A DNA stretch of 64,000 nucleotides from Verrucomicrobiota bacterium (GTDB lineage Bacteria > Verrucomicrobiota > Verrucomicrobiia > Palsa-1439). The notes below the pieces were generated by a model. That model worked only from the letters and a program-made list of their open reading frames with translations. It was not told the origin of the DNA and searched no databases. Made by a program: the position numbers and the translations under genes. The DNA is taken from the NCBI GenBank assembly GCA_037127585.1, contig JBAXYB010000004.1, forward strand, positions 4,022 through 68,021, given 5' to 3'. Of this stretch, positions 20,101-56,500 are shown in pieces (positions within the stretch are counted from its first letter, which is position 1; each line of letters opens with the position of its first letter).

Positions 20101-20589
20101 TTTAACTTCCACCGGCAACGCAAACCTGACGGGCTGTGTTTGGCCGACTACATCAATGCCCCACATGATTCCGTGGCGATGTTCGTCGTCGGTGCCGGCA
20201 CCGGCATCCGGCAACGCGCCGAGGAATACAAAGCGCAAGGTGAATACCTCAAGTCCCACGCGCTCCAAGCCCTCGCCATCGAGACCGCTGAAGGTTGTGC
20301 TGAGTGGTTGCACCGGCGCATCCGGGAAGACTGGGGTTTCCCAGACCCCGCCGACATGACGATGCTCAACCGGTTCACGACCAAATACCGGGGCCGCCGC
20401 TACAGCTTCGGCTACCCGGCCTGCCCCGCGCTCGAAGACCAAGCCGGCATCTGGAAGCTGCTCAAGCCGGAAGAGATTGGAGTTCAACTCACGGAAGGTT
20501 TCATGATGGACCCGGAAGCATCGGTAAGCGCTTTGGTATTCCACCACACCGATTGCGCGTACTTTGGGGTTGGCGATACCGGAGAGTAG
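17110..20589 (+). CDS. metH: cobalamin-dependent methionine synthase
   Basis: The 1160-aa protein from MSTDRTQLLFDALNQSILVLDGAMGTMIQ carries Hcy-binding, pterin-binding, B12-binding (DVHDIGKN) and AdoMet reactivation domains. Confidence 0.9.
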   Translation: MSTDRTQLLFDALNQSILVLDGAMGTMIQNRDLTAADFGGPALEGCNENLVLTRPDVIRDIHRQYYAAGAHIVETNTFGATPLVLAEYGLQDKCREINVAAARLAREAAIEFNGFVAGSIGPTTKAITVTGGVTFQQLVENFHAQALGLIEGGADLLLVETCQDTRNIKAALIGIAQTGSKIPVMVSGTIEPMGTMLAGQAAEALVASLQHVELLAIGLNCATGPEFMTDHIRTIHQMTNARVSCYPNAGLPNEEGLYLETPTSLATALERFVKNGWLNIIGGCCGTTPAHIKAIAEMVAGKEPRRHRGERKSWYSGIELVEASDDTRPLIVGERTNEVGSRAFKRLITEEKFEEASEIARAQVKHGAHIIDINLENTDRDELLDIDRFYEKVIHKVKAPIMIDSTNPKSVERALTYCQGKSIINSINFEDGEEKFNHILPLVHRYGAAVIIGSIDEDKLQAQAITRERKLAIAQRAHKYCIEHGIPEEDLIFDPLVFPCATGDENYIGSAVETIEGVRLIKENLPRCKTVLGVSNVSFGLPAAAREVINSVFLYHCSRAGLDLAIVNAEKLERYPSIPDVEKKLTEDLLHNYPPAGMDAPKDYRQQTKEQRAAINQHHIAAISEHFRGAESRVKKKTSDLPLDGRLANYILEGTKEGLIPDLDLKRAEGATPLDIINGPLMDGMKEVGRLFNANELIVAEVLQSAEAMKAAVNHLEQFMEKKSDSTKGKVLLATVKGDVHDIGKNLVEIILSNNGFHVINLGIKVPPEDLIKAYKEHQPDAIGLSGLLVKSAQQMVITAGDLKQAGITVPMLVGGAALSDKFTRNRIAPSYEQVVIYCKDAMTGLAMMNNLMDPAQREKVVEAHKPVAVAVVEPEAEEFPETTHRSIRIHEELPLPVPYPDRKVRDVPQLREIWEYINPQMLYVRHLGFKTNYEKALAARDPKALELYNLVEEVKVEAAKFMKVKAVWQFFEAEVDGNSIKLFSPPRPLAAAPIHVFNFHRQRKPDGLCLADYINAPHDSVAMFVVGAGTGIRQRAEEYKAQGEYLKSHALQALAIETAEGCAEWLHRRIREDWGFPDPADMTMLNRFTTKYRGRRYSFGYPACPALEDQAGIWKLLKPEEIGVQLTEGFMMDPEASVSALVFHHTDCAYFGVGDTGE

Positions 20590-20803
20590 ATGTCCAAGTA
20601 TTGCGAGCTCTGACAGGTCTTGGTAGGATGTTGGTCGATGAATCTGCACCTCGACGAAACGATCCGCCGCAGACGCCCGATGAACGCGTCGAGACGTTGA
20701 TGGCTGCACTACGGGAGGTCGAAGCGCGCGGAATGTGGCCGAGGATTGATCGCAAAGCTAAGGAGCAGCGCATTATTCAGGGCCTTCATGCTGCTCGGAT
20801 TGC

Positions 20804-21001
20804 CCGGAAGAAATCGGCGTGCAGTTGACCGAAGGATTCATACTGAACCCGGGAATCGAGCGACGAGGGCAGTAGCGAGATGACGTTGTGTCGTTTCAAC
20901 GCCCGAAGGGTGTTGCGCGCGGGAGCGAGCAACATCAACCCAGCGTCAGCGCACTCGTGTTTCACCACCCCGATTGCGCGTACTTCGGCGTCGAGACGTA
21001 A
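20804..21001 (+). pseudogene. degenerate second copy of the metH 3' end
   Basis: It reads CCGGAAGAAATCGGCGTGCAGTTGACCGAAGGATTCAT...GTGTTTCACCACCCCGATTGCGCGTACTTCGGCGTCGAGACGTAA. This parallels the metH terminus (EEIGVQLTEGFMMDP...VFHHTDCAYFGVGDTGE*) with an internal indel of about 100 bp. Confidence 0.6.
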
Positions 21002-21041
21002 CGGAATAAACCACAGAGGCACAGGGGTCGCAGAGTCGTTG

Positions 21042-21066: not shown

Positions 21067-21119
21067 GCTCTGGCAGACTCAATCTTGATTACCGGGCCAC
21101 AGCCAGTTAATCTATCGAC

Positions 21120-21302
21120 ATGGCTACGGCAAACATCAAGGCTGACTTGAAAGAGATTGCGGAGCACTTACCGGTGACGTCTTCCTACACGGATGCGATG
21201 TACGAGTTGTCCTTTCGCATGAAGATTACCCACGCGAAGCAGGCCGCCAATGAAGGCCGGGTTATCCCTCACGCGGAAGTGAAGCGAGGATTTCACCTAT
21301 GA
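21120..21302 (+). CDS. small antitoxin-like protein, a diverged member of the same family as the next gene
   Basis: The 60-aa ORF overlaps the next ORF by 4 nt. Its C-terminus (...EGRVIPHAEVKRGF) resembles the conserved C-terminus of putative addiction-module antitoxins. Confidence 0.35.
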   Translation: MATANIKADLKEIAEHLPVTSSYTDAMYELSFRMKITHAKQAANEGRVIPHAEVKRGFHL

Positions 21303-21532
21303 GCAAATCGGAGATTCTGAGCGAATTGCCGAACCTCAGCGCCAAGGAACGACGGGAGATTCTCGACAGTCTCTTGCAGCTTGAGGGCGCAGGCTGGCTG
21401 GATGCGGCTGATCTCACCGACGAAGAACGCCAACTCATCGAATCCCGTCTCGAAGCTCATCGCCAGAATCCTGACGCTGCCATCCCATGGGAAGACGTCG
21501 AAGCGAAACTGATCGCACGCTTCGGCAAATGA
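21299..21532 (+). CDS. type II antitoxin (putative addiction module component family)
   Basis: MSKSEILSELPNLSAKERREILDSLLQL...AAIPWEDVEAKLIARFGK matches the pattern of unstable-antitoxin families. The ORF overlaps the ParE gene by 4 nt. Confidence 0.6.
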   Translation: MSKSEILSELPNLSAKERREILDSLLQLEGAGWLDAADLTDEERQLIESRLEAHRQNPDAAIPWEDVEAKLIARFGK

Positions 21533-21840
21533 GCTACCGGCTCAACGCCCGTCCTGAAGTTTCTCCAGACATTCTCGAGGCCGCCGATTGGTACGAACGT
21601 CAGCAACCGGACTTGGGCGCGGACTTTGTCCGTGAAGTCCGACACAGTATCCAATCACTGCGCGTCAATCCCTTGCTGTACCGGATTCGACATGCAAAAT
21701 GGCGCGTCCGGTGGGTACTACTCCATCGCTTCCCGTATCAAATTGTCTTCGTCGTCGATGGTGAACTGATTACGATTCTTGCCGTGATGCACGCCAAGCG
21801 ACATGACCGCCACTGGCGTGAACGAGCGAAAGCCGGATGA
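21529..21840 (+). CDS. parE: ParE/RelE-family toxin
   Basis: The ATG at 21529 opens MSYRLNARPEVSPDILEAADWYERQQPDLGADFVREV...YRIRHAKWRVRWVLLHRFPYQIVFVVDGELITILAVMHAKR, a ParE fold pattern. Confidence 0.65.
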   Translation: MSYRLNARPEVSPDILEAADWYERQQPDLGADFVREVRHSIQSLRVNPLLYRIRHAKWRVRWVLLHRFPYQIVFVVDGELITILAVMHAKRHDRHWRERAKAG

Positions 21841-21890
21841 GCCGCCTCCGAATATTTCTTAAGCGCTTGCCCCGAATCCTTTTCGGGGTC

Positions 21891-21953
21891 AGCGCGCTGG
21901 TGTTCCATCACACGGATTGCAACTATTTTGGCGTGGGTGATGTAGGCGATTAA
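21891..21953 (+). pseudogene. third copy of the metH 3' end (SALVFHHTDCNYFGVGDVGD*)
   Basis: It is nearly identical at the peptide level to the metH terminus SALVFHHTDCAYFGVGDTGE*, and sits immediately after the parE stop. Confidence 0.65.
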
Positions 21954-22028
21954 GATAGGCACGGGCTTGTGCCAACTGAAGTTTTCACAATCAGTCTAAT
22001 TTCTTCATGTGCGAGGCGATCTTGCATA

Positions 22029-22139
22029 GTGTCCTAATCTGGACCGACGTTGTAGCCGAAGCGTGAGCTTCGGGCGTCAGCATGCGAATCCCGAAGCTCA
22101 CGCTTCGGCTACAGGAAAGGCTGGGAGAAATTAGGACAC
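22029..22139. repeat. nested REPIN: two identical units (TGTAGCCGAAGCGTGAGCTTCGGG) inverted, inside an outer GTGTCCTAAT/ATTAGGACAC inverted repeat
   Basis: The inner arms lie at 22051-22074 and 22090-22113, and the outer arms at 22029-22038 and 22130-22139. Confidence 0.6.
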
Positions 22140-22183
22140 CACCGGGAGTTGCAATCGAAGTTCCCGACCACTAAAGTCCACGC

Positions 22184-32217: not shown

Positions 32218-32367
32218 ATTGAGACAGCGATTGGAGAAGGCGGCAGTTTGTAGGGCGCGATGCCCCGTGTCGTTTCGGAGTATCGCGCCGCGAGGAGAGT
32301 CCAGCAATGATCACGGCGCGATACCTAAACGACAGGCATCGCGCCCTACAATTAGCGCGCTTGCCGC

Positions 32368-33288
32368 ATGAAATCTTCCCGCCCAGGCGAAGTTCGATTC
32401 GGCGAGCAACTCAGCGCGCGGGGGCAACTGTACCGGTCGGCCACGACCAGCGGGCCGAGCATCGTGTGGGTCACGATTTTTCTGTTGCTGCCATTGGTGG
32501 GGATTGGCGTCATCAGCTTTCTGTCGCGCGGCGAATCCGGCGGGTACGAGCTACCGTTTACCTTTACTAACTACACGCGCTTTGCCGGTTGGGGTTTTTT
32601 TGGGTATGACATTTTGTATCCGCAGATCATTCTGCGCAGCATCGTGCTCGGCACCGGTACGGCGGCGCTCTGTACGTTGGCGGCATTGCCGCTGGCGTTT
32701 TTTATCGCGGCGTTACCGGGCCGGTACAAGAATCTGGCTCTGACACTCGTCTTGATTCCGTTTTGGACGAACCTCTTGATCCGCACGTACGCGTGGCAGA
32801 TTTTGCTCGCGCCGGAAAGCCCGATCACGTGGGTGGCGACCAAGCTGCATTTGATCGCCGCCGACGCACCGCTGTATCCGAGCGAGTTCGCGATTTATAT
32901 CGGCATGGTTTGCGATTATCTGCCGTTCCTTGTGTTGCCGTTGTATTCGTCGGTGGAGAAGATCGACTGGAGCATTGCCGAAGCGGCGAGCGATTTGGGG
33001 GCGGATGGGAAACGCGTGTTCTGGCATGCCATTTTGCCGCAGGTGATGCCGGGGTTGGTGGCGGGCGTGATTCTGGTGTTGATACCGGCGATGGGGCAGT
33101 TTGTGATCCCGGATTTGTTGGGCGGGGCGAAGACCGTGATGCTGGGGAATGCCATCCAGCAACAGTTTGGGCCGAGCCGGGATTGGCCGTTTGGGTCGGC
33201 GATCGCGTTTCTGGGAATGGCCGTGGTGCTGGTGAGCCTGTGGTTTTACGCGCGGTATGCCGGCGAGAAAGGCGGTGACATCTTATGA
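32368..33288 (+). CDS. potB: spermidine/putrescine ABC transporter permease
   Basis: A six-TM permease with the EAA motif region (AEAASDLGA). The true start may lie downstream of 32368. Confidence 0.75.
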   Translation: MKSSRPGEVRFGEQLSARGQLYRSATTSGPSIVWVTIFLLLPLVGIGVISFLSRGESGGYELPFTFTNYTRFAGWGFFGYDILYPQIILRSIVLGTGTAALCTLAALPLAFFIAALPGRYKNLALTLVLIPFWTNLLIRTYAWQILLAPESPITWVATKLHLIAADAPLYPSEFAIYIGMVCDYLPFLVLPLYSSVEKIDWSIAEAASDLGADGKRVFWHAILPQVMPGLVAGVILVLIPAMGQFVIPDLLGGAKTVMLGNAIQQQFGPSRDWPFGSAIAFLGMAVVLVSLWFYARYAGEKGGDIL

Positions 33289-34085
33289 GAAAGGTGTCGC
33301 TGCCGCTGTGGTTGCTGGCCGGGTTTCTGTACGTGTTCATGTACGCGCCGATCGTGGTGGTGATCGTCTTTTCGTTCAATGCCGCAAAACACGGGGGGCC
33401 GTGGACGGGGTTTACCACGGAATGGTACGCGAAGTTGCTCGACAGCCCGGATAAGCTCAAGGCCACGGAGAACACTGCCATCTTGGCGTTCGCGAGCACA
33501 ATCCTGGCGACGGTGCTCGGGACGATGTTGGGCTACGGCCTGAGCCGGTATTGGTTTCCGGGGAAGAAACTTTTTTCGCTCATGATGTATATTCCGGTCG
33601 TGATCCCGGACATTGTGATGGCGGTGGCGATGTTGTCATTTTACGCGTTGGTGCGAGATTGGCTTGGGCTGTTTGAACTGGGCATGACGACGATGATCAT
33701 CGCGCATATTACGTTTCAGATTCCGTTCGTCGCCATTGTGGTGCGGTCGCGGCTGGCTGGGATGGACCCGGCCATCGAGGAAGCGGCGCATGACTTGGGT
33801 GCGAGTTCGTGGCAGACGTTTTGGAATGTGACGTTCCCGCTGATGCTGCCGGGGGTGTTGGCGGGGGCGATGTTGGCTTTTACATTGAGTCTCGACGATT
33901 TTGTGGTTAGCTTCTTCACAACAGGACCCGGAGCGACGACATTGCCAATTCTGATTTACTCGTCGGTCAAACGCGGCATTACGCCGGACATCAACGCGTT
34001 GTCCACGTTGATCGTGCTGGCGTCCGTCATCGGAACCATCGGCGTGACGCTGTTGCAGCGTCCCGCCAAACACTCAGGAGGTTGA
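33285..34085 (+). CDS. potC: spermidine/putrescine ABC transporter permease
   Basis: A PotC-like permease (EEAAHDLGAS) that overlaps the potB stop. Confidence 0.8.
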   Translation: MRKVSLPLWLLAGFLYVFMYAPIVVVIVFSFNAAKHGGPWTGFTTEWYAKLLDSPDKLKATENTAILAFASTILATVLGTMLGYGLSRYWFPGKKLFSLMMYIPVVIPDIVMAVAMLSFYALVRDWLGLFELGMTTMIIAHITFQIPFVAIVVRSRLAGMDPAIEEAAHDLGASSWQTFWNVTFPLMLPGVLAGAMLAFTLSLDDFVVSFFTTGPGATTLPILIYSSVKRGITPDINALSTLIVLASVIGTIGVTLLQRPAKHSGG

Positions 34086-34086
34086 T

Positions 34087-35121
34087 ATGTTACAGCGTCT
34101 CGCCGTGATTGCGGTTGCGCTCTCGCTGACAGTTTCAGCGTGGGCTGCGAAGAACAAACTCAACGTGTACATCTGGAGCGAGTACATCGACCCGAAGATC
34201 ATCGAGCAGTTCTCGAAGGAATTCGACTGCGAGGTGACGGTCGATCTCTACGAAGACAACGAGAGCATGATGGCCAAACTCCAAGGCGGCGGCACCTCGC
34301 TCTACGACATCGTCGTCCCCTCGGACTACATCATCCCGGCGTTGATCAAAAACAGCTTACTCGCGCCGTTGCGGAAAGAAAACGTTCCAAACATGAAGAA
34401 CCTCGATCCCCAGTTCGCCGGCCGCGAATATGATGCCGGCAACAAATACACCGCGCCATACCAATGGGGTACCGTCGGCCTCTACGTCCGTCGAAAACCC
34501 GGCGAAACCATCGACGAAACGTGGGGCATCATCTTCGACCCGAAGAAATCCATCGGCTCGTTCCTGATTATTGACGACGCCCGGGCCGCCATCGGTGCCG
34601 CGCTCAAGTACAAGGGCTACAGCCTCAACACCACCGACAAGAAGCAACTGAAGGAAGCGCGCGATGTGCTTATCGAAGCCAAGAAGCGTTCCCTCGGCTT
34701 CGAAGGCGGCGTCGGCATCAAGAACAAGGTCCTCGCCAAAGTCTGCCGCGTCGGCATGGTCTACAACGGTGACGCCGTCCGTGGCACGAAGGAAGACAAG
34801 GACACCTATTACTTCGTCCCGCGCGAAGGCACCGAAATCTGGCTCGATAACCTCGCCATCCCGGCGAAAGCCCCGAATCGCGACATGGCCGAGAAGTTCA
34901 TCAACTACATCCTCGACGCGAAGATCGGCGCCCAACTCTCGAACTTCAATCAGTACCCCACGCCCAACCTAGCCGCCAAAGAGCTCATCAATCCGGCCGA
35001 TCTCAAGAACACTGCCATCTACCCCAGCGCGGAGCAGATGAAGACGCTGGAGTTCGTCAAAGACCTCGGCTCGAAGACCGGCTGGTACGACGAACTCTGG
35101 ACCGGTATCAAATCCAAATAA
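34087..35121 (+). CDS. potD: spermidine/putrescine-binding periplasmic protein
   Basis: A signal peptide precedes an SBP_bac_1 fold. LNVYIWSEYIDP is the typical PotD/PotF N-terminal motif. Confidence 0.8.
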   Translation: MLQRLAVIAVALSLTVSAWAAKNKLNVYIWSEYIDPKIIEQFSKEFDCEVTVDLYEDNESMMAKLQGGGTSLYDIVVPSDYIIPALIKNSLLAPLRKENVPNMKNLDPQFAGREYDAGNKYTAPYQWGTVGLYVRRKPGETIDETWGIIFDPKKSIGSFLIIDDARAAIGAALKYKGYSLNTTDKKQLKEARDVLIEAKKRSLGFEGGVGIKNKVLAKVCRVGMVYNGDAVRGTKEDKDTYYFVPREGTEIWLDNLAIPAKAPNRDMAEKFINYILDAKIGAQLSNFNQYPTPNLAAKELINPADLKNTAIYPSAEQMKTLEFVKDLGSKTGWYDELWTGIKSK

Positions 35122-35143
35122 TCACCCCCACGTCAGGAGCGAT

Positions 35144-36493
35144 ATGCCTCAAGACCTCACCGCGGCGCACAAGAAATCTGCCTACGTCCTCGATCTGATC
35201 AGCAAAAAAGAACTCTCGCTCGCCGAACGCAAACGCGTCATCAAAGAGTCCGTCAAGTATTGGGCCGACCACGTCAACGCCGGCTTCCTCAAATACCGGA
35301 AATCCGTCAGCACCGACTACACCGCCGTCGAATGGTCCGACGAAGGCGCATGCTTCAAAGACATCAACGGCAAAGAATTCATCGACATGCTCGGCGGCTT
35401 CGGCATCTACGTCACCGGCCACCGCCACCCGAAAGTCCTGAAAGCCGTCCTCGACCAACTCAAACGCCAAGGCATCCACTCCCAAGAACTCATCGACCCG
35501 CTCCGTACCTACCTCGCCCACCTCGTCGCACTCATCACGCCGGGCGATCTTCAATTCGCCTTCCTCACCAACAGCGGCACCGAGTCCATCGAAGGCTGCC
35601 TCAAAATGGCCGTGGCCACTACCGGCCGCCACAAATTCATCGGCATGCTCGGAGGTTTCCACGGCAAGAGCATGGGCTCGCTCGGCGGCACCTCGAAAGC
35701 CATCTTCCGCGAACCATTCCTCCCGCTCCAAAACTGGACCCACGTCCCGTTCGGCGACGTTGACTCCCTCAAGATGATCATGGCCAGTTGCGATTTTAGT
35801 GGCGACCGCGTCGCTGCCGTCGTCATCGAACCCATCCAAGGCGAAGGCGGCATCAACGTCGCCCCGCCCGGCTTCCTCGCCGCCGCCCGCGAACTCTGCG
35901 ACAAATACGGCGCCATGCTCGTGTTCGACGAAATCCAATGCGGCATGGGCCGCACCGGCAAAATGTTCTACTGCGAACACGACGGCGTCGTCCCCGACCT
36001 CATGGCACTCGGCAAAGGCTTCGGTGGCGGCGTCATGCCCATCGGCGCGACCGTCGGCACCCCGAAGACCTGGGAAAAATACATCGAGAACCCATTCCTC
36101 CACACCACCACTTTCGGCGGCAACCCCGTTTGCTGCGCTGCCGCCATCGCCACCATCAACGTCCTCCTCGAAGAAGACTTGCCGGCGCAAGCCGCCAAGA
36201 AAGGCGATTACCTCCTCAAAAACATCAACGCCCTCGCCAAGAAATACTCAAAGGTCTTGAAACTCTGCCGCGGCAAAGGCCTCATGCTCGGCATGGAATT
36301 CACCAACGACGAACTCGGCTACGAAGTCGCCAAAAACCTTTTCGCCCGGCAAATCCTCATCAGCGGCACCTACATCAACGCCCGCGTCCTCCGCATCGAA
36401 CCGCCGCTCGTCATCCCGCAAGCCCAACTCGACCGGTTCCTCGAAATGCTCGAAGAATCGCTCAAGCAAGTTTACAAAGCCCACAAACTCTGA
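35144..36493 (+). CDS. class-III PLP aminotransferase, likely putrescine:2-oxoglutarate aminotransferase
   Basis: FDEIQCGMGRTGKMF (PLP-lysine context) and an LGKGFGGG-type motif are present in a 449-aa protein. It lies immediately downstream of potABCD, so the putrescine specificity is inferred from context. Confidence 0.65.
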   Translation: MPQDLTAAHKKSAYVLDLISKKELSLAERKRVIKESVKYWADHVNAGFLKYRKSVSTDYTAVEWSDEGACFKDINGKEFIDMLGGFGIYVTGHRHPKVLKAVLDQLKRQGIHSQELIDPLRTYLAHLVALITPGDLQFAFLTNSGTESIEGCLKMAVATTGRHKFIGMLGGFHGKSMGSLGGTSKAIFREPFLPLQNWTHVPFGDVDSLKMIMASCDFSGDRVAAVVIEPIQGEGGINVAPPGFLAAARELCDKYGAMLVFDEIQCGMGRTGKMFYCEHDGVVPDLMALGKGFGGGVMPIGATVGTPKTWEKYIENPFLHTTTFGGNPVCCAAAIATINVLLEEDLPAQAAKKGDYLLKNINALAKKYSKVLKLCRGKGLMLGMEFTNDELGYEVAKNLFARQILISGTYINARVLRIEPPLVIPQAQLDRFLEMLEESLKQVYKAHKL

Positions 36494-36496
36494 CGC

Positions 36497-36661
36497 GTGC
36501 AACCCTTCGCCGCCATCGACTGTCCGCACTGTGGCGAAAAATTCACGCTCGCCATTGACCCTAGCGAAGACGACGCGGAGTTTGTCATCGACTGTGAAAT
36601 TTGTTGCCGGCCGATGACGGTTACTGTCCACGACGGAGAAGTCCATGCCGTTGCCGATTGA
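36497..36661 (+). CDS. CPXCG-type zinc-ribbon small protein (54 aa), absent from the supplied ORF track
   Basis: A GTG start 3 nt after the aminotransferase stop opens VQPFAAIDCPHCGEKFTLAIDPSEDDAEFVIDCEICCRPMTVTVHDGEVHAVAD*, with CPHCG and CEICC motifs. Confidence 0.5.
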   Translation: MQPFAAIDCPHCGEKFTLAIDPSEDDAEFVIDCEICCRPMTVTVHDGEVHAVAD

Positions 36662-36720
36662 ACAAGCCTCCTACTGGCTCGCCACCCGGCCACCCCCGAA
36701 TCCGTCCCGCTAACCGGCAC
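36660..36720 (+). repeat. displaced partial copy of the 5' end of the downstream FAD-oxidoreductase gene; left direct repeat of TA cassette 2
   Basis: GAACAAGCCTCCTACTGGCTCGCCACCCGGCC-CCCCGAATCCGTCCCGCT compares with 37382-37440, which reads GAACAAGCCTCCTACTGGCTCGCCACCCGGCCTCCCCATGAATCCGTCCCGCT. The identity is about 90% and the left copy is frame-shifted. Confidence 0.65.
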
Positions 36721-36757
36721 CCTTCGCGCCAATAATCCTATTTCGGAGTCCCGTCGT

Positions 36758-37048
36758 TTACGTCAGCCGCTGTCTGATCCAAGTCGGATTCCGGCGGCAG
36801 TCCAGTACGGCATTGACGTGAACAGTGTCGCCGGTCACGGTGTAGTAGATGGCAAATGGAAAACGCTTGGATAGGCAGCGCTGCTGGCCGAAAACGATTG
36901 AGTGAATGCCAGCATACAGTTGCAGCGAATCGATGTCGGAAAACAGGCAGTCAAGAAAGTAGTTACCAAGACCAAGTTCTTGTTTCTCGTAGAAACAGAA
37001 ACCGTCAATCAGGTCGTGCCGCGCATCGTCGTGAATCTCAACTCTCAC
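36758..37048 (-). CDS. parE: ParE/RelE-family toxin
   Basis: MRVEIHDDARHDLIDGFCFYEKQELGLGNYFLDCLFSDIDSLQLYAGIHSIVFGQQ...YYTVTGDTVHVNAVLDCRR matches the ParE pattern (...Y.....I.V.RVLH..RD). Confidence 0.65.
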   Translation of the reverse strand: MRVEIHDDARHDLIDGFCFYEKQELGLGNYFLDCLFSDIDSLQLYAGIHSIVFGQQRCLSKRFPFAIYYTVTGDTVHVNAVLDCRRNPTWIRQRLT

Positions 37049-37260
37049 GACACTTGGCGGCGGAGGTCAACCTTGGCCGATTCCCACGAGGTGTATCCCG
37101 CCTTGCCTTCGGCGACCCGGTTCTGTCGCTGCTCCAGCACTTCCTTGTGCCATGCCGGAGATTCGACGGCTTCGGGTGTGCGCGATAAGTCCTCCCACAA
37201 GGCTTCCATCGCGGCGAGCTTCTCTGCCAGAGTCATTTCTTTCAACGCCAGCGTTGTCAT
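37045..37260 (-). CDS. type II antitoxin (putative addiction-module component)
   Basis: The ATG at 37260 opens MTTLALKEMTLAEKLAAMEALWEDLS...SWESAKVDLRRQVS. A 4-nt overlap links it to the toxin gene. Confidence 0.55.
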   Translation of the reverse strand: MTTLALKEMTLAEKLAAMEALWEDLSRTPEAVESPAWHKEVLEQRQNRVAEGKAGYTSWESAKVDLRRQVS

Positions 37261-37369
37261 GGCCAAACTATACCGTGGCCGGCCGGAATTGCCAATCTGA
37301 ACGTCCCGACATGAATAAAAAGTTATTACGCCGCGCCTCACTCCATCCTGGCTGTGCTAAACTGTTCCC

Positions 37370-38746
37370 GTGCGCCCCATCGAACAAGCCTCCTACTGGC
37401 TCGCCACCCGGCCTCCCCATGAATCCGTCCCGCTGACCGGCGACCGCAACGCCGACATCGTCATCATCGGTGGCGGCTTTACCGGCCTCTGGACCGCTGT
37501 GGCTCTCAACCAACTCGCACCGGCCGCCACCATCATCCTCCTCGAACGCGCCTGTCTCGGCTACGGCGGCAGCGGTCGCAATGCCGGCCAAGTCAGCGGC
37601 GGCATCGACCACTCCCACCAAAAAGCCATCGCCCATTTCGGACTCGACGAAGCCCGGCGCATGGCGACACTCGGACTCCAAAACCTCGACGAGATCGGCC
37701 AATTCTTCCGGCACCACAAACTCGACTGCGATTTTGCGCGCACCGGCCAACTCTTCGTCGCCCTCACGCCCGCGCAAGTGGAAGACGCCCGCGCCGCCGT
37801 GGCCGCCGCCACGCAAGTCGGTATTGCCGACGCGCGCGTGCTCACCGCCGACGAAACTCGCGCCGAACTGAACAGCCCCCTCTACTGCGGCGGCGCCATT
37901 GACCCAACCTGGGGCATCGTCAACCCCATCAAAATCGTCGACGGCATTCGCCAAGTTATGACCACTGCCGGCGTGAAAATCTTCGAGCGCACGCCGGTCA
38001 CTGCCATCGACCCGACCGGCCCCAAAGTCCGCGTCAAAACTCTGACCGGCACCGTTGTGGCAGACAAAGTCATCCTCGCCACCAACGCCTACTCACACCA
38101 CCTCATCCCGCGGCTCCTGCGCCGGTACATCCCGCTCTACGACTACGTCCTCGTCAGCGAACCCCTCACCCCCGCCCAACTCGCCGCGATCGGCTGGCAA
38201 CGCCGGCAAGCCGTCGTCGACGGTCGCACCTTCTTCAACTATTACCGGCTCACCGCCGACAACCGGATCCTCTGGGGCACCAGCGAAGCCCGGTATTACT
38301 CCGGCAATCGCGTCGACGAATCTTGCGACCACTCCGAAACCCACTACGCCGCGCTGCGCGCCAGCTTCACTCGGCATTTCCCCCAACTGGCCGGCTTGCA
38401 ATGGCCCTACGCCTGGGGTGGTCCGATCGCCTCGACGACCCGGCTCACCCCATTCTTTGGGTCACTGGCTGGTGGCCGCATTCACTATGGCTTGGGCTAT
38501 ACCGGTCTCGGCATCGCCAACTCCCATCTCGCCGGCAAGATTCTCGCCCATCAAACCCTCGGCATCCCCAGTCCCCTCCTCGACCTCGCACTAGTCCGCC
38601 ACCAACCGCTCCTCTACCCACCCGAACCAATCCGCACGTGGGCCGTGAACATCATCACCCGTTCCCTGCGCCGCGTGGATGCCGGCGCGAAGCCCAACGC
38701 CTTGTTGCGAGCCCTCGATCTGCTCGGAATCGGCTTCTCGAGCTAG
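37370..38746 (+). CDS. FAD-dependent oxidoreductase (DAO family; gamma-glutamylputrescine-oxidase/PuuB-like)
   Basis: The N-terminal Rossmann motif is DIVIIGGGFTGLWTA, in a 458-aa protein. It lies next to the putrescine uptake and aminotransferase genes. Confidence 0.65.
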   Translation: MRPIEQASYWLATRPPHESVPLTGDRNADIVIIGGGFTGLWTAVALNQLAPAATIILLERACLGYGGSGRNAGQVSGGIDHSHQKAIAHFGLDEARRMATLGLQNLDEIGQFFRHHKLDCDFARTGQLFVALTPAQVEDARAAVAAATQVGIADARVLTADETRAELNSPLYCGGAIDPTWGIVNPIKIVDGIRQVMTTAGVKIFERTPVTAIDPTGPKVRVKTLTGTVVADKVILATNAYSHHLIPRLLRRYIPLYDYVLVSEPLTPAQLAAIGWQRRQAVVDGRTFFNYYRLTADNRILWGTSEARYYSGNRVDESCDHSETHYAALRASFTRHFPQLAGLQWPYAWGGPIASTTRLTPFFGSLAGGRIHYGLGYTGLGIANSHLAGKILAHQTLGIPSPLLDLALVRHQPLLYPPEPIRTWAVNIITRSLRRVDAGAKPNALLRALDLLGIGFSS

Positions 38747-38801
38747 GATGAAACTGCGCAGCCCGGCTAAGAACCCATCCCAAAACGTCCCGATCCATTT
38801 T

Positions 38802-38879
38802 CCGGGAGGGCGAGGCTCCCGCCGAGCCGTGGGGTGACGTGGCTCGGCGGGAGCCTCGCCCTCCCCCGGTTTTGGGATC
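38802..38879. repeat. family-A palindrome (CCGGGAGGGCGAGGCTCCCGCCGAGCCG - 10-nt loop - reverse complement)
   Basis: The arms are near-perfect 28-nt sequences, and the flanks (cccaaaac...gatcc / ggttttgggatcgg) are themselves partly complementary. Confidence 0.65.
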
Positions 38880-39011
38880 GGCTCTAAGCCGTCGCCACGA
38901 TGCGTTCCATCGCAGCTTCTTGCTGCTCGATGGATTCAACAAGCCGAAACTGGGTCCGCGCCCGGTCGAGGTTGTGCCCGTCCCGATGCGTCTTGAAATA
39001 CGTGTCACCGT

Positions 39012-39953
39012 TCAAGAAATCCGCCAGAAGCGAATCCCGATTTCAAAAGTGATCAGTTTACCGGAAAAGACCAGCTGCCGGCGTTCAGCCGGCGTGAGAA
39101 ACTCACCGGCCGTGCTGAGATAGCCCCGCACGAGTGCCTCGAACAACGGAAATTGCATTTTGACCTTTGTCAGATCACGTTCGTCTTCCTTGCTCGGGCT
39201 GGTGGTGGTGCGAACCATGTCGCCGAAATCATAGAGCACCAACCCCGGCATCACCGTGTCGAGATCAATGACGCAGATCCCCTTGCCCGTCGCATCGTCG
39301 AGCATGACGTTGTTGAATTTCGTGTCGTTGTGCGTGATGCGTTCCGGCAACCCGGCTTCAATCAAGACCGGCGTGATCGCCTTCCGCCGAAGGGCAAATT
39401 CGATTTCGGGTTTCGCCAGCGCGGCGCGATTGGCCACGTCCGCCGCGATGGCCGTCTCCAACGCCGCGAACCGTTTCGGCGTGTGGTGGAAATCGGGAAT
39501 GGTGTCGTGCAACCGCGGCGCCGGTAAGTCCGCGAGCTGCTGTTGAAACTGGCCAAAAGCGCGCGCGGCTTGGTACGCTTGCTGGGGTTGCTCAACCGCA
39601 TCGTAGGTGTGAGCGCGGTCGATGAATTGGTACGCGCGCCAGTGGTTGCCGGCTTCGTCGCAATAAAAGATCTGCCCGGCGCGTGCCGGCACGAGGGTGA
39701 GCGCCCGGTCGCTGCCGTTGGTGAGTTTAGTGCGCAGATGATCGGTGACGCGCTGGATGTTTTCCATCACGGCCACCGGGTTCTTAAAGACGGCGTGATT
39801 GATGCGCTGGAGAATGTACTGCCCACCGGCACAGGTCACGCGGTAGGTGTCGTTGATGTGGCCGCTGCCGTACGGTTCGGATGTGACCATCGCACCGGCA
39901 AACTGAAATTGCCGGCTGATGGCGTGAACATCGTGGGGTGGATTCTTGTGCAT
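39012..39953 (-). CDS. phosphotransferase-family protein (APH/choline-kinase-like fold)
   Basis: Brenner-like motif HNDTKFNNVML and a D-x-D region (IDLDTV) are present. The substrate is unknown. Confidence 0.5.
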   Translation of the reverse strand: MHKNPPHDVHAISRQFQFAGAMVTSEPYGSGHINDTYRVTCAGGQYILQRINHAVFKNPVAVMENIQRVTDHLRTKLTNGSDRALTLVPARAGQIFYCDEAGNHWRAYQFIDRAHTYDAVEQPQQAYQAARAFGQFQQQLADLPAPRLHDTIPDFHHTPKRFAALETAIAADVANRAALAKPEIEFALRRKAITPVLIEAGLPERITHNDTKFNNVMLDDATGKGICVIDLDTVMPGLVLYDFGDMVRTTTSPSKEDERDLTKVKMQFPLFEALVRGYLSTAGEFLTPAERRQLVFSGKLITFEIGIRFWRIS

Positions 39954-40059
39954 GGCCTCGACCGGGGCGCAGTGTGGCCGGCGCCGGCAACTCTGTCAAG
40001 TCGGCGACGTATTCCGCCCCACGTTGACTTGCCGGCGGCTGAAGTTTATAACCGCTCGC

Positions 40060-42615: not shown

Positions 42616-45602
42616 GTCACGTTCACCACGTCGCCGGTGCGGAGGAAGAAGACGAGCAGTTCTTCGACCGCGATGCCGGCGGTTTTGTTCAGCGCCTCAC
42701 GGTAGGCGCGCAGTTGAGCCTGATATTGCAACGCCTCTTGCGTCACATCGGTTTTGTAATCCACGAGCACCCACCGGCTCTGCTCGCGAAACAGTAAATC
42801 AATTCGGCCTTCCAACGTTCCATCGGCAAACGGCAACTCCCGGTAAACCTCATCCGCCTGACCAGCGCGGGTGAGCAACGGCGAACGGAGCGCGCGTTCG
42901 ACCCACGTCTTGGCGTCATCAGTCAAACCGGTTGCGTCCAATCGTTCCAACGCCGCGTGAACGAGCGTTCCGATTTCCATCGCCCGTTCGCGCGCAACCC
43001 CGGTCGGCTCGTCTTCCGCCTCAAGCTTCGACGGACTCACGCGCAACGCCGACTTCCCAGCTCGCTCCAACAACGCCGTGCGCTCCGCCTGCCAGGCCGC
43101 GCGGTTGAACGTTCGGACATCCGCCGCCGCCGGTTCGCCCACAACCACCGCCGGCAAGTCGCCGATAATTTCCACCACGGCACTCTCGCCCAGCTCGAAG
43201 CCGCGCTTCAAGAGGTCAAGCCGCTCACCTTTTTCGGCAAACCACGGGATGATCAGTTGCCGGCGCGCGCGGGTGGCCGCCACGTAGAGCAACCGGATTT
43301 CCTCGGCTTCATCGCGCAAGTCTTGCTCGCCAACTGCCGGTTCAAAACCGGTGGTCTTGCAGCCGGCAAAGCGCAACTGGAAATTCTGCGCTGCCCGATC
43401 CGGCACAAGTCGCGCGCCGCTGTCGCTGGATTTACCGGCCAGATCGGCGAGAATCACGACTGGAAATTCGAGACCCTTCGATTTGTGCATCGAGAGCAAT
43501 TGCACGGCCGGCGCTTGATCTTCGTGGGCCGGTGCGGGTTCTTCGTCCATCCCGGCCATGACGGTCTGGCGGAGTTGCCGGACGAAGCCGCGCAAGGAAC
43601 GGATGCCGGCAGCTTCGACTTGCCGGGCCAGTTCGAGTGCTTTGAGCAGATTCGCGACGCTGGCTTGACCGTCGGCGCTGACGGAGAAACAGGCCTGACA
43701 GAGATGCGTCCGCGCGAAGACTTGTTCGACGAAACCGGCCACGGAGAATTGATGCCGGGCATCGTGGAGTTCGCGCAGGAGGCGGAAGGTCGGGTTGTCG
43801 GCGCGCAAGTAACTCAGGCCACCGGCTTCGTTGGCGAGAAGGATTTGCTCGTCGCTCCAACCAAACAACGGCGACCGGAGAACGGCAATGAGATTGAGTT
43901 TGTCGTTCGGATTGTCGAGGCAACACAAGAGCGCGATCAAGGTCTGAATCTCTTGCCGTTGATAGTAACCACGACCGCCGATGATGCGAAACGGAACGCT
44001 GGTTTCGAGGAAGACTTCGGCAAACACTTCCACGCCGGTAAAACTTCGGAAGAGCAATGCGACATCGTTCCAGGGGATCTGCTGGCGGTGGAGATACCGA
44101 GCGATGGCGGTGGCTTCGGCACGACGGGCGGCGTCGATGGATTGTTTTTCGGGGATTGATGCCGGCCGCAAGAGCGTGATCTTGCCGGCGGCCGGGTGCG
44201 AGGCTTCGAGTTCGATGTAGTGCGGTTGATAGCTGGTCGGCTGAAACATCTTGGCGAAGACTGAATTTACCCAGTCGATGATGTTGGCCTGGCTGCGGAA
44301 GTTGCGCTGGAACTGGACGACTTGGCCGGTCGCCCCCAACTGCTGCCGCGTGCCGGCGTACATCTCGATGTCGGCCCGCCGAAAACCGTAGATGCTTTGT
44401 TTGGGATCGCCAACGATGAAGAGTTTTCCCGGTGTGTCGCCGCCGAGAGCGAGGACGATTTCGTTTTGGACCGGGTCGGTATCCTGAAATTCATCAACAA
44501 GAAGGAACTTGTACCGGTCTTGGAACTCCTGGCGGATGGCTGGCCCGCGCAGGAGGTCGCGCGTTTGTTCCAAGAGATCATCGAAGTCGAGCACGGCTTG
44601 GGAGTTTTTATATTGCTGAAAATGACCGACAAAGCCGGTCAGCCAGCCGGCCAGTTCCACCAGAAAGTTGTGTTCAGTGGCCGCGGTGTAATCGGCGATG
44701 ACGGCTTTGAGTTCTTTGATAGTCGCTTTGGTTTCGATGAATACCGCGGGCGAATCGAAATCGGCTTTGCGTTTTGGCTCGGAAAGTTCGACCGCGGAGA
44801 GCAACGCCGCCGCGCGCTCGGCCGAGGCAGTCGCCAGTTGCGGCAGGACATCGAGAAAGGATTTCACTCGTTGATAGAAGGTCTCGGCCGGCGCGACGTT
44901 GTGTTTGAGGCACCGCTCCAAGACTGGTGCTGCCGCTTCGAGTTCCCGGCGGATCGATTGCGGGTCGGCCGGGCACAGCGCCGGCCACGGTTGGTCGGTG
45001 AGCCGTGACCGCTGCTCTATCAACAGCGTCGCGAGCTCTTTGAGTTGGGGGATTCCGATCTCGCGCATCAAGGCCTGACGCAACGCAGCGGGATTTTTCG
45101 TCAGTTCGGATTCCAGCCAATTCGCCCACGCTTCATCGAGGAGCAATTGCTGCTGCAAATTATCGGCGACCGCAAACTGCGGATCGAGGCGCGCTTCGAC
45201 GGGCCGCTCGCGCAAAAGCGACGCGCAGAACGAATGAATCGTCGTAATGGGGGCGCGTTCCAAATCGCTGAGAGCTTGCCGGAGTGCGGCGCCGGTCACT
45301 TTCTTTTCCAGTTCTTCGCGCAGCCGCAACTTCAACTCCCCCGCCGCTTTCTCGGTAAATGTGATCGCGACATTCTCGTAAAGCCGCGCCCGGCCACTGG
45401 TCACCGCCGTCAGGATGCGCGCGACCAATGCCGTGGTCTTGCCGGTGCCGGCGGCAGCTTCGACGAAGAATGTCGTGTCGAGTTGCGTCGCGGTGGCGCG
45501 GCGCGCTTCTTGATCGATGGGAGGGCGAAGCTCCGGCTGAGCCGCCGGGGGCATGGCTCGCCGGGAGGCTCGCCCTCCCAACGACTCGCGTTCAGGACTC
45601 AT
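42612..45602 (-). CDS. addA: UvrD-like helicase with a C-terminal PD-(D/E)xK nuclease (AddA/RecB-like)
   Basis: Walker A is AGTGKTT, and helicase motifs, a C-terminal nuclease domain, and a stop/start overlap with the upstream addB-like gene are all present. Confidence 0.75.
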   Translation of the reverse strand: MSPERESLGGRASRRAMPPAAQPELRPPIDQEARRATATQLDTTFFVEAAAGTGKTTALVARILTAVTSGRARLYENVAITFTEKAAGELKLRLREELEKKVTGAALRQALSDLERAPITTIHSFCASLLRERPVEARLDPQFAVADNLQQQLLLDEAWANWLESELTKNPAALRQALMREIGIPQLKELATLLIEQRSRLTDQPWPALCPADPQSIRRELEAAAPVLERCLKHNVAPAETFYQRVKSFLDVLPQLATASAERAAALLSAVELSEPKRKADFDSPAVFIETKATIKELKAVIADYTAATEHNFLVELAGWLTGFVGHFQQYKNSQAVLDFDDLLEQTRDLLRGPAIRQEFQDRYKFLLVDEFQDTDPVQNEIVLALGGDTPGKLFIVGDPKQSIYGFRRADIEMYAGTRQQLGATGQVVQFQRNFRSQANIIDWVNSVFAKMFQPTSYQPHYIELEASHPAAGKITLLRPASIPEKQSIDAARRAEATAIARYLHRQQIPWNDVALLFRSFTGVEVFAEVFLETSVPFRIIGGRGYYQRQEIQTLIALLCCLDNPNDKLNLIAVLRSPLFGWSDEQILLANEAGGLSYLRADNPTFRLLRELHDARHQFSVAGFVEQVFARTHLCQACFSVSADGQASVANLLKALELARQVEAAGIRSLRGFVRQLRQTVMAGMDEEPAPAHEDQAPAVQLLSMHKSKGLEFPVVILADLAGKSSDSGARLVPDRAAQNFQLRFAGCKTTGFEPAVGEQDLRDEAEEIRLLYVAATRARRQLIIPWFAEKGERLDLLKRGFELGESAVVEIIGDLPAVVVGEPAAADVRTFNRAAWQAERTALLERAGKSALRVSPSKLEAEDEPTGVARERAMEIGTLVHAALERLDATGLTDDAKTWVERALRSPLLTRAGQADEVYRELPFADGTLEGRIDLLFREQSRWVLVDYKTDVTQEALQYQAQLRAYREALNKTAGIAVEELLVFFLRTGDVVNVT
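45519..45579. repeat. family-A palindrome inside the first 30 codons of addA
   Basis: GGGAGGGCGAAGCTCCGGCTGAGCC...GGCTCGCCGGGAGGCTCGCCCTCCC, translated as part of MSPERESLGGRASRRAMPPAAQPELRPP. Confidence 0.6.
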
Positions 45603-53397: not shown

Positions 53398-53415
53398 TCG
53401 CAACAGGATCGCCAT

Positions 53416-53490
53416 TGTAGCCGCGAGCCTGCTCGCGGCCCCACGGAATGCGCCAGTCCACAGTGAACCGCGAGCAGGCTCGCGGCTACA
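53416..53490. repeat. REPIN: two identical units (TGTAGCCGCGAGCCTGCTCGCGG) in inverted orientation, between convergent genes
   Basis: The arms are perfect 23-nt sequences at 53416-53438 and 53468-53490. Each arm is itself a small hairpin (CCGCGAGC..GCTCGCGG). Confidence 0.65.
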
Positions 53491-53513
53491 AAACCGAATT
53501 TCAAAACGCGCTC

Positions 53514-56500
53514 TCAGGCTTTTTCGGGCCGGTTGCTGTCCCAGACGATCGCCTTCTGCGGGGCGCTCTTCCGTTGCGAATCACCGCCCCCGCCCCACTG
53601 TCGCTGCCCAGCCGGCTTGGCGGTCATCTTCTCGGTATCCACCTTCAACCACACCGTTTCCTCGCCCGCCAACGTTTCGAGCGCGTCCACCAGTTCGGCC
53701 GACGGCGTCACCGCGAATTGATCGTGCGGTTCGAGAAACAAGAGTTGGCCATCCGGGTACATGAAGCAAAACATCACCGGCACGCCGCCGGTATGGGCGT
53801 TCAACAGATCCCGAATCTGCAGCAACGTAGCCTCGTTGGCCGCCGTGGTTGAAAGCCGGATGTGCATGGCCTTGGTGAACCGCTTGGGGACGTCGGTCAA
53901 TGGGATAACTTGATCCGCAAATATTTTCGGTTTGTCCTCGCGCAGATTCACCACGCCGGTAACAAAGACGGGCGCGTCCGCTTTCAAATGGATCGCACAC
54001 TTCGCATACGCCTCCGGGAAGACGAGCACCTCCACCGCGCCATCGAGATCTTCGAGCGTCAGGATCGCCATCGGCTTGCCTTGCTTGGTCAACCGCGGCT
54101 GGAGTTTACTCACAAGACCGCCGATGCGCGTGGCTTGGCCGTCCTGCAATTGAAGCAACTGCGTCGTCGACGCGAGTTCGTACCGGCGCAGAATCTCCGC
54201 GTACTGACTCAACGGATGGCCGGTCACGTAGAACCCGAGCAATTCTTTTTCGAAGCCCAACATCTCACTCTGCGTCCACTCCACCGCTGGCGGCTGACCG
54301 GCGGTTTGCTTGCGGGCATTGACCGGCGCGACGTCAAAGAGCGCGGCCTGCCCGCGATCCTTGTCGCGCTGGACAGTGGCGGCGCGATTGATTTGGTAAT
54401 CGATCTCGGCGAACACCTGGGCGCGCGCCGGGTTGATGGCGTCGAATGCGCCGCATTTGATGAGACACTCGATGACCTTGCGATTGACGACATGCATGTC
54501 GATCCGGTCACAGTAATTGGCAAGCGAGGTGAACGGCCCGCCCTTCCCGCGCACATCGATGATGTTCTGCACGGCGATCTCGCCCACGTTTTTAATCGCG
54601 GCCATGCCGAAACGGATTGCCTTAGTAGCGCGGGCGTCCCGCCCGTCTCCCCCAGCCGACGACACGGGCGGGACGCCCGCGCTACTGGTTACGGTGAACC
54701 GCACGCCGCTCTCATTCACATCCGGCGGCAAGACTTCGATCTTCATGTGCCGGCATTCGTTGATGAAGAGCTGAATCTTCTCCGTGTTCGCCAGTTCGTT
54801 CGATAACGACGCCGCCATGAACTCGACCGGGTAGTTCGCCTTCAAGTACGCCGTCTGATACGCGACCACGGCGTAGGCGGCACTATGCGATTTGTTAAAT
54901 CCGTAACCGGCAAACTTCGCCAGCGTATCGAAAATTCCTTCGGCTTTGGCTTTCGGGATTTTATGCGTGTCCGCGCAGCCTTTGATGAACGTGGCGCGCT
55001 GCTTCTCCATCTCCTCCAGCTTTTTCTTCCCCATCGCGCGCCGCAAAATATCCGCGCCCCCGAGCGTGTACCCGGCCAGCGCGTTCGCCGCCTGCATGAC
55101 CTGCTCCTGGTACACAAAAATGCCATACGTCTCTTTGAGAATCGTCTCCAGCGCCGGGTGGTCGTAGACAACTTTCACCTTGCCATGTTTGCGAGCAATG
55201 TAGTCGTCGATGAACTGCATCGGCCCCGGCCGGTAGAGCGCGATGAGCGCGTTGATGACCTCAATCGAATCAATCCCAATGCGCCGGCACAAGTCGCGCA
55301 TCCCGCCGGATTCCAATTGAAACACGCCGATGGTGTTCGCCTTCATCAGCAGGTCGAACGTCTTTTGATCGTTGAGCGGAATCTTCTCCATGTCAACGCG
55401 CGTCCCGGTGGTCTGCTCAATCAGATCGAGGCAATCCTTGATCACCGTCAACGTCTTCAACCCGAGGAAATCCATCTTCAACACGCCGAGATCGCCGAGC
55501 GGATTCATCGAGTACTGCGTGACGATGTCAGTCTCATTCGTGCCGGTCGTCAGCGGCACGATATTCGTCAACGGCTCCGCGCCGATGACCACGCCGGCCG
55601 CGTGCGTGGATGCGTTGCGCGCGATGCCTTCGAGCGCCTTGCCGTTGTCGATGATGCGCCGGACGATGTCCTCCGTATTGTAGGCCGTCTTGAGCTCGGG
55701 GTTCATCTCCAACGCCTTCTCCAGCGTCATACCGAGATCCGGCGGAATCATCTTTGCGATCCGGTCACACTCGGTATAACCCAGCCCCAGCACACGCCCC
55801 ACATCCCGCACCACCATCTTCGCGCCGAGCGTACCGAACGTGATGATCTGCGCGACGTGATCCGACCCGTACTTCTGCCGGACATACTCAATGACTTCCG
55901 GTCGGCGGTTGTAACAAAAGTCCATGTCGATATCCGGCGGCGACACGCGTTCGGGATTGAGAAACCGCTCAAAGAACAACCCATACCGGAGCGGGTCGAT
56001 ATCCGTGATCTTCAACGCATACGCCACCAGACTACCGGCCGCACTGCCGCGCCCCGGCCCCACCGGGATGCCATGCGTCCGCGCGAAATTCACAAAATCC
56101 CAGACGATCAAGAAATAGCTCGTGAACCCCTGCTTCGCGATGACATCCAGCTCGCGTTCGACCCGCGCGTGGATTTCGTTCGACGGCGAGCTGCCATACC
56201 GCTCGCGCACCCCGGCTTCGGTGAGTTGCCGGAGATACTGGTTCCGCTCGACACCAACCGGCGGGTGATAGACCGGAAAACGCAGCTTGCCGAACTCGAA
56301 TTTGAAACTGCATTTCTCCGCGACTTCGAGCGTGTTCGTGACCGCCTCCGGCACCTCGGCGAACAGCGTGTGCATTTCCTCCGGCGACCGCAGGAAAAAC
56401 TGCTCCGGCGCATACCGCATCCGCTTCTCGTCGCTGACCAACGCCTGCGTCTGCAAACAGATCAAACAATCGTGCGCTTCCCAATCACCGCGTTTGACAT

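Follow-up and report, generated by a model that had tools for sequence, protein, structure and literature searches.

How chromosomal toxin-antitoxin pairs move when they carry no mobility gene is a long-standing loose end. The closest precedent for the arrangement described here comes from restriction-modification systems, which reportedly insert with a long target duplication. In the cases published for restriction-modification gene complexes (Furuta, Abe & Kobayashi 2010, PMC2853133; Mruk & Kobayashi 2013, PMC3874152), the repeats are variable in length (about 30-500 bp), they often span the start or stop of a gene, no mobility genes accompany the addiction-type gene pair and sibling strains are uninterrupted (PMC2853133). 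The repeats and the uninterrupted target are near-identical, e.g., at 44-47 of 46-47 bp (PMC2853133), and the mechanism of the duplication is unknown in that literature too. The stretch of DNA analysed here (hereafter the window) comprises 64,000 nucleotides of contig JBAXYB010000004.1 from a Verrucomicrobiota bacterium, and contains a small toxin-antitoxin cassette flanked by two copies of the start of a gene for a FAD-dependent oxidase. The anatomy of this oxidase locus is the same as that of the restriction-modification cases, with repeats of more than 30 bp across a gene start and no mobility genes. However, the cargo is a type II toxin-antitoxin pair, the two copies differ mostly silently, and one of them has a different start and leader, which does not agree with an origin of both from a single target. 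As judged from the sequences, the repeat looks like two diverged versions of the same gene end lying side by side rather than a duplication made by insertion.

The direct repeat joins positions 36654-36718 and 37376-37441 in 66 aligned columns at 90.9% identity with one gap only, of 1 nt (blastn E 4.2e-18), and is the top-scoring direct repeat of the whole 64-kb window. A preliminary description of this DNA had noticed the repeat of the oxidase start on both sides of the cassette, and this is borne out; the length of about 60 bp given there holds for the well-kept part of 66 nt, whereas the left copy (36645..36746, plus strand), when aligned with relatives, continues in degraded form to about 36746 and totals roughly 102 nt. 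An ATG at 36645 opens the left copy, which reads MPLPIEQASYWLATRPP before a frameshift and a stop. Its frame is broken by a 1-nt deletion near 36697, and it overlaps the final codons and TGA (36659-36661) of a gene for a CPXCG zinc-ribbon protein (36497..36661, plus strand; PF14255, E 1e-15), both of which had been recognized correctly. The CPXCG gene closes a block whose upstream genes encode an ABC transporter, the associated binding protein and a class-III aminotransferase. The right copy forms the beginning of the intact oxidase gene (37370..38746, plus strand; 458 aa; PF01266 DAO, E 2e-59), which begins with GTG at 37370 and encodes MRPIEQASYW. As the preliminary description had it, the only genes between the copies are those of a toxin (36758..37048, minus strand; 96 aa) and an antitoxin (37045..37260, minus strand; 71 aa; PF09720 Unstab_antitox, E 9.5e-15). 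The antitoxin gene overlaps the toxin start by 4 nt, and a sigma-70-like promoter of the toxin-antitoxin operon can be added (37267..37295, minus strand; TTGGCA-17-TATAGT), a pattern match only that scores 10/12 in a consensus scan. The GTG start is preceded by a conserved leader (37305..37369, plus strand) of the type found at stand-alone oxidases, which aligns upstream of the GTG start in the related loci L003, L176 and L177 and is not part of the cassette. On the other side, the junction between the stranded start and the cassette falls in 36747..36757: oxidase 5' homology ends at about 36746, homology to the L003 cassette begins at 36752, and only ~11 nt separate the end of the left copy from the toxin stop codon. 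No terminal inverted repeats were found at the cassette ends, its two small open reading frames (ORFs) include no transposase or integrase, and neither an attC-like inverted repeat nor intI is present at the cassette.

The origin of the two starts is indicated by informative close relatives of the oxidase, namely L176 (90% identity in amino acids), L177 (82%), L003 (82%) and L178 (80%). L178, which at 80% protein identity is not a sibling strain, is uninterrupted: the CPXCG gene leads directly into the oxidase, the start of which is MEKPMQLPIEKASYW (MQLPIEKASYW). Window positions 36498-36718, i.e., the CPXCG gene plus the left copy, form one aligned block with L178 5-226, and two extra codons, for Leu-Pro, are common to the left copy and L178 and missing from the right copy. 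Cassette-free junctions at which CPXCG abuts the oxidase, to which the preliminary description had pointed as the informative comparison, were thus found in L178 and also in the more distant L004 and L043. In L176 and L177, a leader of ~65 nt is followed by GTG-CGY-YCC-ATY-GAA, which matches what precedes the right copy of the window and its start, GTG-CGC-CCC. No toxin or antitoxin lies upstream of the L176 oxidase in the 412 nt of available upstream sequence, and in L177 a sulfatase gene is located upstream of the leader. Because the left copy aligns together with the CPXCG end to the uninterrupted L178, it is probably the native, CPXCG-coupled start of the oxidase in its native position, and because the right start is found cassette-free in L176 and L177, this start and its leader probably represent a second native type of start, one not tied to the cassette. 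The locus holds both an L178-like native remnant and a diverged copy of the stand-alone type seen in L176, L177 and L003. The leader, with the pattern AAAAAnAGTT...TAAACTG...CC-GTG, precedes stand-alone oxidases in four genomes (window 37305-37369; L003 5945-6000; L176 ~350-412; L177 ~3940-4000); an Rfam search of leader and cassette gave no match, and the leader may be a promoter or regulatory element.

In L003, the cassette of the window (89% identity in nucleotides) is joined to the same leader and start, and this block is located downstream of the same transporter-aminotransferase-CPXCG block. There, 1.85 kb of other cargo separates CPXCG from the toxin and no stranded copy is present. This cargo (L003 3453-5042), which the window lacks, encodes a 318-aa NOV_C (DUF3883) protein and a 179-aa zinc-ribbon membrane protein and is defence-like or accessory. 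Between the window and L003, the cassettes are 89% identical and the adjoining oxidases 81%, and the two oxidases belong to different sub-clades. One further record, L001/L002 (ENA ERZ4222710 NODE_453), is 100% identical to window 32370-39965 and probably represents the same assembly, which gives no independent support for the structure.

The same scar recurs around related cassettes. From 80 metagenome loci and 4 loci obtained by protein look-ups, the 65 with at least 300 nt of flank were tested, and bracketing direct repeats of 29-284 nt and 74-94% identity were found at 18 of them, compared with 0/68 shifted positions in the same loci and 2/118 unrelated loci (Fisher p 6e-7 and 1e-7, respectively). 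In about a dozen apparently independent events, one of the copies forms the 3' or 5' terminus of a long ORF; the host genes are unrelated (e.g., a 2-hydroxyacid dehydrogenase, a beta-lactamase-like protein, a multihaem cytochrome and an amidohydrolase, among others), with about 12 unrelated target genes and cassettes at 67-88% toxin identity. For 11 of the 18 pairs, 12-100 nt separate the toxin stop from the beginning of the downstream copy, and the upstream stranded copy ends an estimated 55-120 nt or so before the antitoxin start. Near-identical repeats occur in none of the 18 bracketed loci. No full-length or long pseudogene intermediate was seen among the 65 loci, the longest repeat being 284 nt, and no shared motif or recombinase core was detected across 16 junction sets. 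Similarity between cassettes of different genomes is bounded by the antitoxin ribosome-binding site and the toxin stop, that is, it covers the coding region only. A transposon or insertion sequence was rejected as an explanation, given that there is no transposase, there are no inverted repeats, and the repeats, at 29-284 nt and 74-94% identity, are not short, fixed and identical.

Four loci were set aside, L151 and L156 because they belong to a different repeat class, and L099 and L157 because their repeats are short or unclear. In L156 (3616-3709, 4553-4647 and 5139-5229) and L151 (2041-2134 and 2978-3072), an AT-rich non-coding repeat of ~90 nt occurs in up to three copies round the cassette in an array-like manner, a class distinct from the gene-end repeats. 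L092 contains a second diverged direct repeat pair (2278-2380 and 3113-3217, 79%) that encloses a further small set of genes, close to a faint Zeta_toxin match, and on the same contig a cassette next to an HMUDK_hel gene that is repeated almost in full.

The differences between copies are structured by codon position. After a fresh duplication, the orphaned copy is expected to decay at all positions and the live copy silently, so that an estimated ~44% of the differences would fall at third positions. Across 13 repeat comparisons the count was 123/206 (p 9e-15 against one third and p 4e-6 against 0.44). This is exemplified by L146, in which 12 of 12 differences are at third positions and the copies have identical 33-residue peptides and stop codons, and by L167, with 14 of 17 and 14 silent differences over 38 identical residues. 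L092 contributes 17 of 25, the genuine end of the metH gene of the window 14 of 19 against one of its extra copies (copy 3, with frame and stop intact) and 9 of 11 against another (copy 2), and the oxidase copies 5 of 5 plus one indel (p 0.017). Moreover, in L146 and L102 the similarity between copies stops at the stop codon or within one base of it, as is expected if coding constraint alone preserved the copies. The excess of silent differences together with the identical peptides makes the copies look like diverged orthologous ends and not like the products of a fresh duplication. The simplest reading of these sequences is that the copies diverged in different genomes, each as the end of a working gene, and came together only recently. 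In the preliminary description, the oxidase and metH repeats had been attributed to one class of mobile cassette that duplicates its target; the different start and leader, the codon structure of the differences and the variable length of 29-284 nt argue against this.

The metH locus is the second place in the window where a repeated gene terminus accompanies a toxin-antitoxin cassette. The parallel with the oxidase locus had been drawn before and holds to this extent, but the locus is richer than described: the last ~22 metH codons are present in three copies, which end at 20589 (the genuine one), at about 21000 and at 21953. The genuine 3' end (20523..20589, plus strand) is followed by an old stranded end (copy 2; 20797..21000, plus strand) with a ~100-nt internal insertion, by the second cassette of the window (21120..21840, plus strand), composed of a 60-aa ORF, a PF09720 antitoxin (21299-21532) and a PF05016 ParE (21532-21840), and by another stranded end (copy 3; 21887..21953, plus strand), which keeps its frame and stop and has 19 differences from the genuine end. 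The 60-aa ORF (21120-21302, plus strand) has no family match and precedes the antitoxin, which makes the metH cassette a three-gene unit. L173, the closest metH relative, also has three copies, with other cargo (a DUF2442/DUF4160 pair), and shares with the window the old stranded copy with its internal insertion of ~100-120 nt (copy 2 is orthologous to L173 5783-6016 by tblastn and blastn). L174 and L175 show no repeated metH ends. When the two cassettes of the window were compared (20590-21960 against 36640-37445), nothing was found below E 0.08, and the two have no non-coding ends in common.

The interval between metH and the gene for an FKBP isomerase (window 20590-22183; L173 4938-7300; L174 1385-4050; L175 4599-6772) carries different cargo in each of the relatives seen, including the ParE cassette, the DUF2442/DUF4160 pair, DUF6088 and large unknown ORFs, and behaves as an integration hotspot. 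In L173 and L175, metH is present as two ORFs. A small ORF that follows metH in the window (20655-20816, plus strand) is 76% identical in amino acids to L173 5601-5762, has no Pfam match, and adjoins the old stranded metH copy with the insertion.

The toxin of the oxidase locus has no Pfam or NCBIfam match, even at E 10 or E 1, and the PF05016 model does not match it. Nevertheless, it is 26% identical to the other, PF05016-positive ParE of the window (BLASTP E 2e-11). Its AlphaFold2 model (pLDDT 93.1) retrieves exclusively ParE-type toxins as the top 21 Foldseek matches in the PDB (TM 0.65-0.79), and 3kxe_A, 5ceg_B and 8c24_B superpose on it with a TM of 0.77 and an rmsd of about 2-2.6 A. A profile of 26 homologues matches ParE2 (8c26_A, E 0.015), and the 3319 homologues collected carry the source annotations RelE/ParE. 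The model thus indicates a RelE/ParE fold, and the toxin is predicted to belong to a divergent ParE subfamily. The earlier view that the two cassettes share one toxin family is therefore right at the level of fold or superfamily, but not beyond it: the toxins are only 26% identical, and the two antitoxins, although both are PF09720 proteins, have no pairwise similarity. On plasmids, only distant homologues of the toxin were found (at most 37% identity, on four plasmids), and look-ups of the exact toxin and oxidase proteins of the window returned only the same contig.

The explanation that we favor, to which we assign about an even chance, is that the cassette and the end of its neighbor spread together by recombination anchored in the neighboring gene, leaving the native end stranded. 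In this model, DNA of a related bacterium would carry the toxin-antitoxin pair, the leader and either the 5' part of the oxidase or the whole gene. The conserved oxidase gene would serve as the homologous anchor through which the incoming block recombines with the chromosome. The far end of the block, ~10 nt past the toxin stop, would enter the resident gene by a join that needs no homology, or else the resident copy could have been deleted later back as far as the cassette. Either way, the first ~100 nt of the resident oxidase would be left stranded. The addiction module would then protect the arrangement, and scars would persist beside toxin-antitoxin cassettes because deletions that remove the cassette would be counter-selected. 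What is directly visible in the sequences is the anatomy, the native left copy, the alternative origin of the right start, the codon-structured divergence and the recurrence; from these we infer the route of recombination, that a donor supplied the DNA and that addiction protects the cassette. The greater likeness of the cassettes (89%) than of the oxidases (81%) between the window and L003 fits a swap of the cassette end through intragenic recombination. The same model explains why the left copy is the native start and why the differences follow codon structure, as well as repeats that vary in length, the lack of mobility genes and of shared motifs, and the different left junction of L003.

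Several observations weigh against this explanation. The data include no donor sequence and no near-identical pair of strains with and without the cassette. The window oxidase is closest to L176, and its 90% identity is uniform along the gene; the profiles against L003, L177 and L178 are flat as well, so that no breakpoint is visible inside the gene. The left and right copies agree at 60/66 positions, whereas the L003 start agrees with either copy at only 51-52/66, yet the junction between cassette and leader is common to the window and L003; this combination calls either for a recent event with a close donor or for gene conversion between left and right copy. When polarised with L003 and L006 as outgroups, the five substitutions of the window are ambiguous. 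Taken alone, the oxidase locus offers thin codon evidence (5 substitutions, p 0.017), and this single locus is explainable by ordinary recombination. The older-looking L168, L108 and L143 show no third-position excess, although this lack of bias would fit older scars. The tight cassette borders (12-100 nt in 11 of 18 pairs) are not predicted by a random fragment end without later trimming. At metH, three different cassettes have stranded ends whose first bases fall within ~10 nt of one and the same codon, and one cassette of the window is enclosed by two such copies. Boundaries this regular are not predicted by random illegitimate joins and keep alive the alternative that a repeated gene end is itself the site of recombination.

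In the form in which that alternative can be applied to these loci, which we consider unlikely, a small circle or repeat-bounded segment with one gene-end copy would enter by a single, Campbell-type crossover inside the gene end. The conserved terminus would be a portable, homology-based attachment site, and cassettes would stack, swap and excise between its copies. The stacking of metH cassettes separated by ~22-codon copies, with different cargo in the window and L173, is what such a process would produce, as are the near-constant starts of the stranded metH copies and the one cassette enclosed by two of them; moreover, the third copy of L173 has the flank of window copy 2 and a sequence nearest to copy 3 (85%), as copy-by-copy deletion gives. 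Diverged copies and tight cassette borders would be explained too. However, the copies are short and 74-91% identical, and with identical runs of about 10-32 nt they are a poor substrate for a RecA crossover, no circular form was observed, the circle at the oxidase locus must also carry the leader of the gene, which is present cassette-free in L176 and L177, and L003 has the block without a second copy. The wider proposition, that the ends of housekeeping genes serve as recombinase-free, homology-based attachment sites for addiction cassettes, seems to us rather doubtful. If true, a cassette would carry the first or last ~20-90 codons of its neighbor and could insert, stack, be exchanged and excise at that gene even in distant relatives, an integron-like platform run by general recombination would be exemplified by the end of metH in the window and L173, and the scar would mark roughly one in four cassettes of this ParE family. 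A decidedly unlikely alternative needs no horizontal transfer when the start was stranded and begins with a tandem intermediate, in which a native CPXCG-coupled oxidase, a cassette island and a second oxidase with its leader stood in a row, and a later deletion of the redundant first copy stopped at the cassette, leaving ~100 nt in the window and nothing in L003. This would account for the different left junctions of the window and L003, for the extra cargo of L003 and for a deletion endpoint ~11 nt past the toxin stop, and it is consistent with the codon evidence, since both copies would once have been functional. Against it stand the lack of any long or full-length pseudogene among the 65 loci, the earlier acquisition of a second copy that it still requires, and its prediction that the stranded copy is as old as the split between the window and L003, although this copy is 91% identical to the intact one.

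A true insertion with long target duplication, in which a dedicated mechanism would duplicate about 30-300 bp and the copies, identical at first, would have diverged since, is suggested by the shared anatomy (repeats above 30 bp, variable and spanning starts or stops, no mobility genes, an uninterrupted relative) and would suit L168, L108 and L143, and gene conversion could have blurred the history. We nevertheless regard it as quite improbable, given the third-position excess, the intact frames and stops in L146, L167 and metH copy 3, the right copy with a start codon and leader native to cassette-free oxidases, and the lack of near-identical repeats in all 18 cases. Site-specific integration has been weighed against elements of the SXT/R391 type in prfC, islands in tRNA genes and cis-mobilisable elements, which target a gene end, supply a replacement end and can undergo tandem accretion. 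The layout seen here is exactly what such integrators give, i.e., an intact gene with a terminus brought by the element, while the native terminus, displaced, forms a direct repeat on the opposite side, and the metH stacking with constant boundaries resembles tandem accretion at an attachment site; the element in question would be minimal and non-autonomous, with a replacement gene end in its attachment site and a tyrosine or serine recombinase encoded elsewhere. Yet this, too, has a low probability in our view. No recombinase was found within or next to the two cassettes, the ten larger ORFs checked at 13.5-40.8 kb of the window being transporters and metabolic genes, and no conserved core at the junctions or conserved non-coding ends were found. 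Unlike such integrators, the 'element' would measure only about 560 nt, about 12 unrelated genes are targeted, and the supplied leader and start occur also on cassette-free genes; the repeat length (29-284 nt) and the different left junction of L003 are further points against it. Finally, the window belongs to a metagenome-assembled genome and its sole other record is 100% identical and may be the same assembly, which raises the question of whether two strains were merged at a shared 5' sequence. The chance of such an artefact is close to nil: a chimeric join via a shared 32-mer would yield one copy and not two flanking a cassette, the junction at 36746-36757 lies outside the repeated sequence, and the same layout is found in many independent assemblies.

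The favored route of recombination anchored in the gene has counterparts in known processes. Homology-facilitated illegitimate recombination has reportedly been described in several studies and, like the route proposed here, combines one homologous anchor with a non-homologous join opposite and needs no mobility genes; it also expects varied far junctions for one anchor, as seen between the window and L003. Such events usually delete recipient DNA next to the anchor. In contrast, the oxidase locus keeps a stranded copy of the anchor's own end, which requires pairing to stop short of the end of the diverged anchor. Xenologous gene displacement in situ is said to occur within operons, and the replacement of a CPXCG-coupled oxidase start, in the same position, by one of the stand-alone type is similar to it. 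Unlike in those cases, what is left of the displaced copy can be seen here together with a linked addiction cassette, and the two point to the vehicle and to the reason for retention. Gene cassettes of integrons, e.g., in the Vibrio superintegron, carry toxin-antitoxin pairs, and the minimal cassettes described here, separated by repeats and stacked, are like such arrays; however, the repeats are coding ends of host genes and not attC sites. An integron cassette was rejected as an explanation, as there is no attC-like inverted repeat and only ~11 nt follow the toxin stop.

The oxidase locus and the 12 further repeat comparisons suggest a route by which a toxin-antitoxin pair may travel, in which the cassette rides on recombination in a conserved neighboring gene and leaves behind a stranded, initially intact copy of the gene end. 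If this is general, a stranded end with mostly silent differences would be a sequence signature for dating and tracing cassette transfers, 'long target duplications' beside addiction modules may not be duplications, and the spread of cassettes could rewrite the ends and the regulation of neighboring metabolic genes. Here, the oxidase would once have been translationally coupled to CPXCG in a polyamine-type cluster and is now preceded by a leader of its own. Searches of the literature brought up no account of a gene-end-repeat architecture for type II toxin-antitoxin cassettes, which is not proof of absence; as far as found, the family-wide scar with its codon signature is a useful and seemingly undescribed lead on the chromosomal spread of toxin-antitoxin systems.

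The window also contains REP-like palindromic repeats, mostly of ~50-110 nt and mostly intergenic, which are scattered through its length at 8488-8518, 16976-17040, 22051-22113, 32248-32351, 38804-38865, 45519-45579, 53415-53491, 54624-54686, 58860-58916 and 63335-63386. A further copy, in L003 (5807-5908), sits exactly between the cassette and the oxidase leader.

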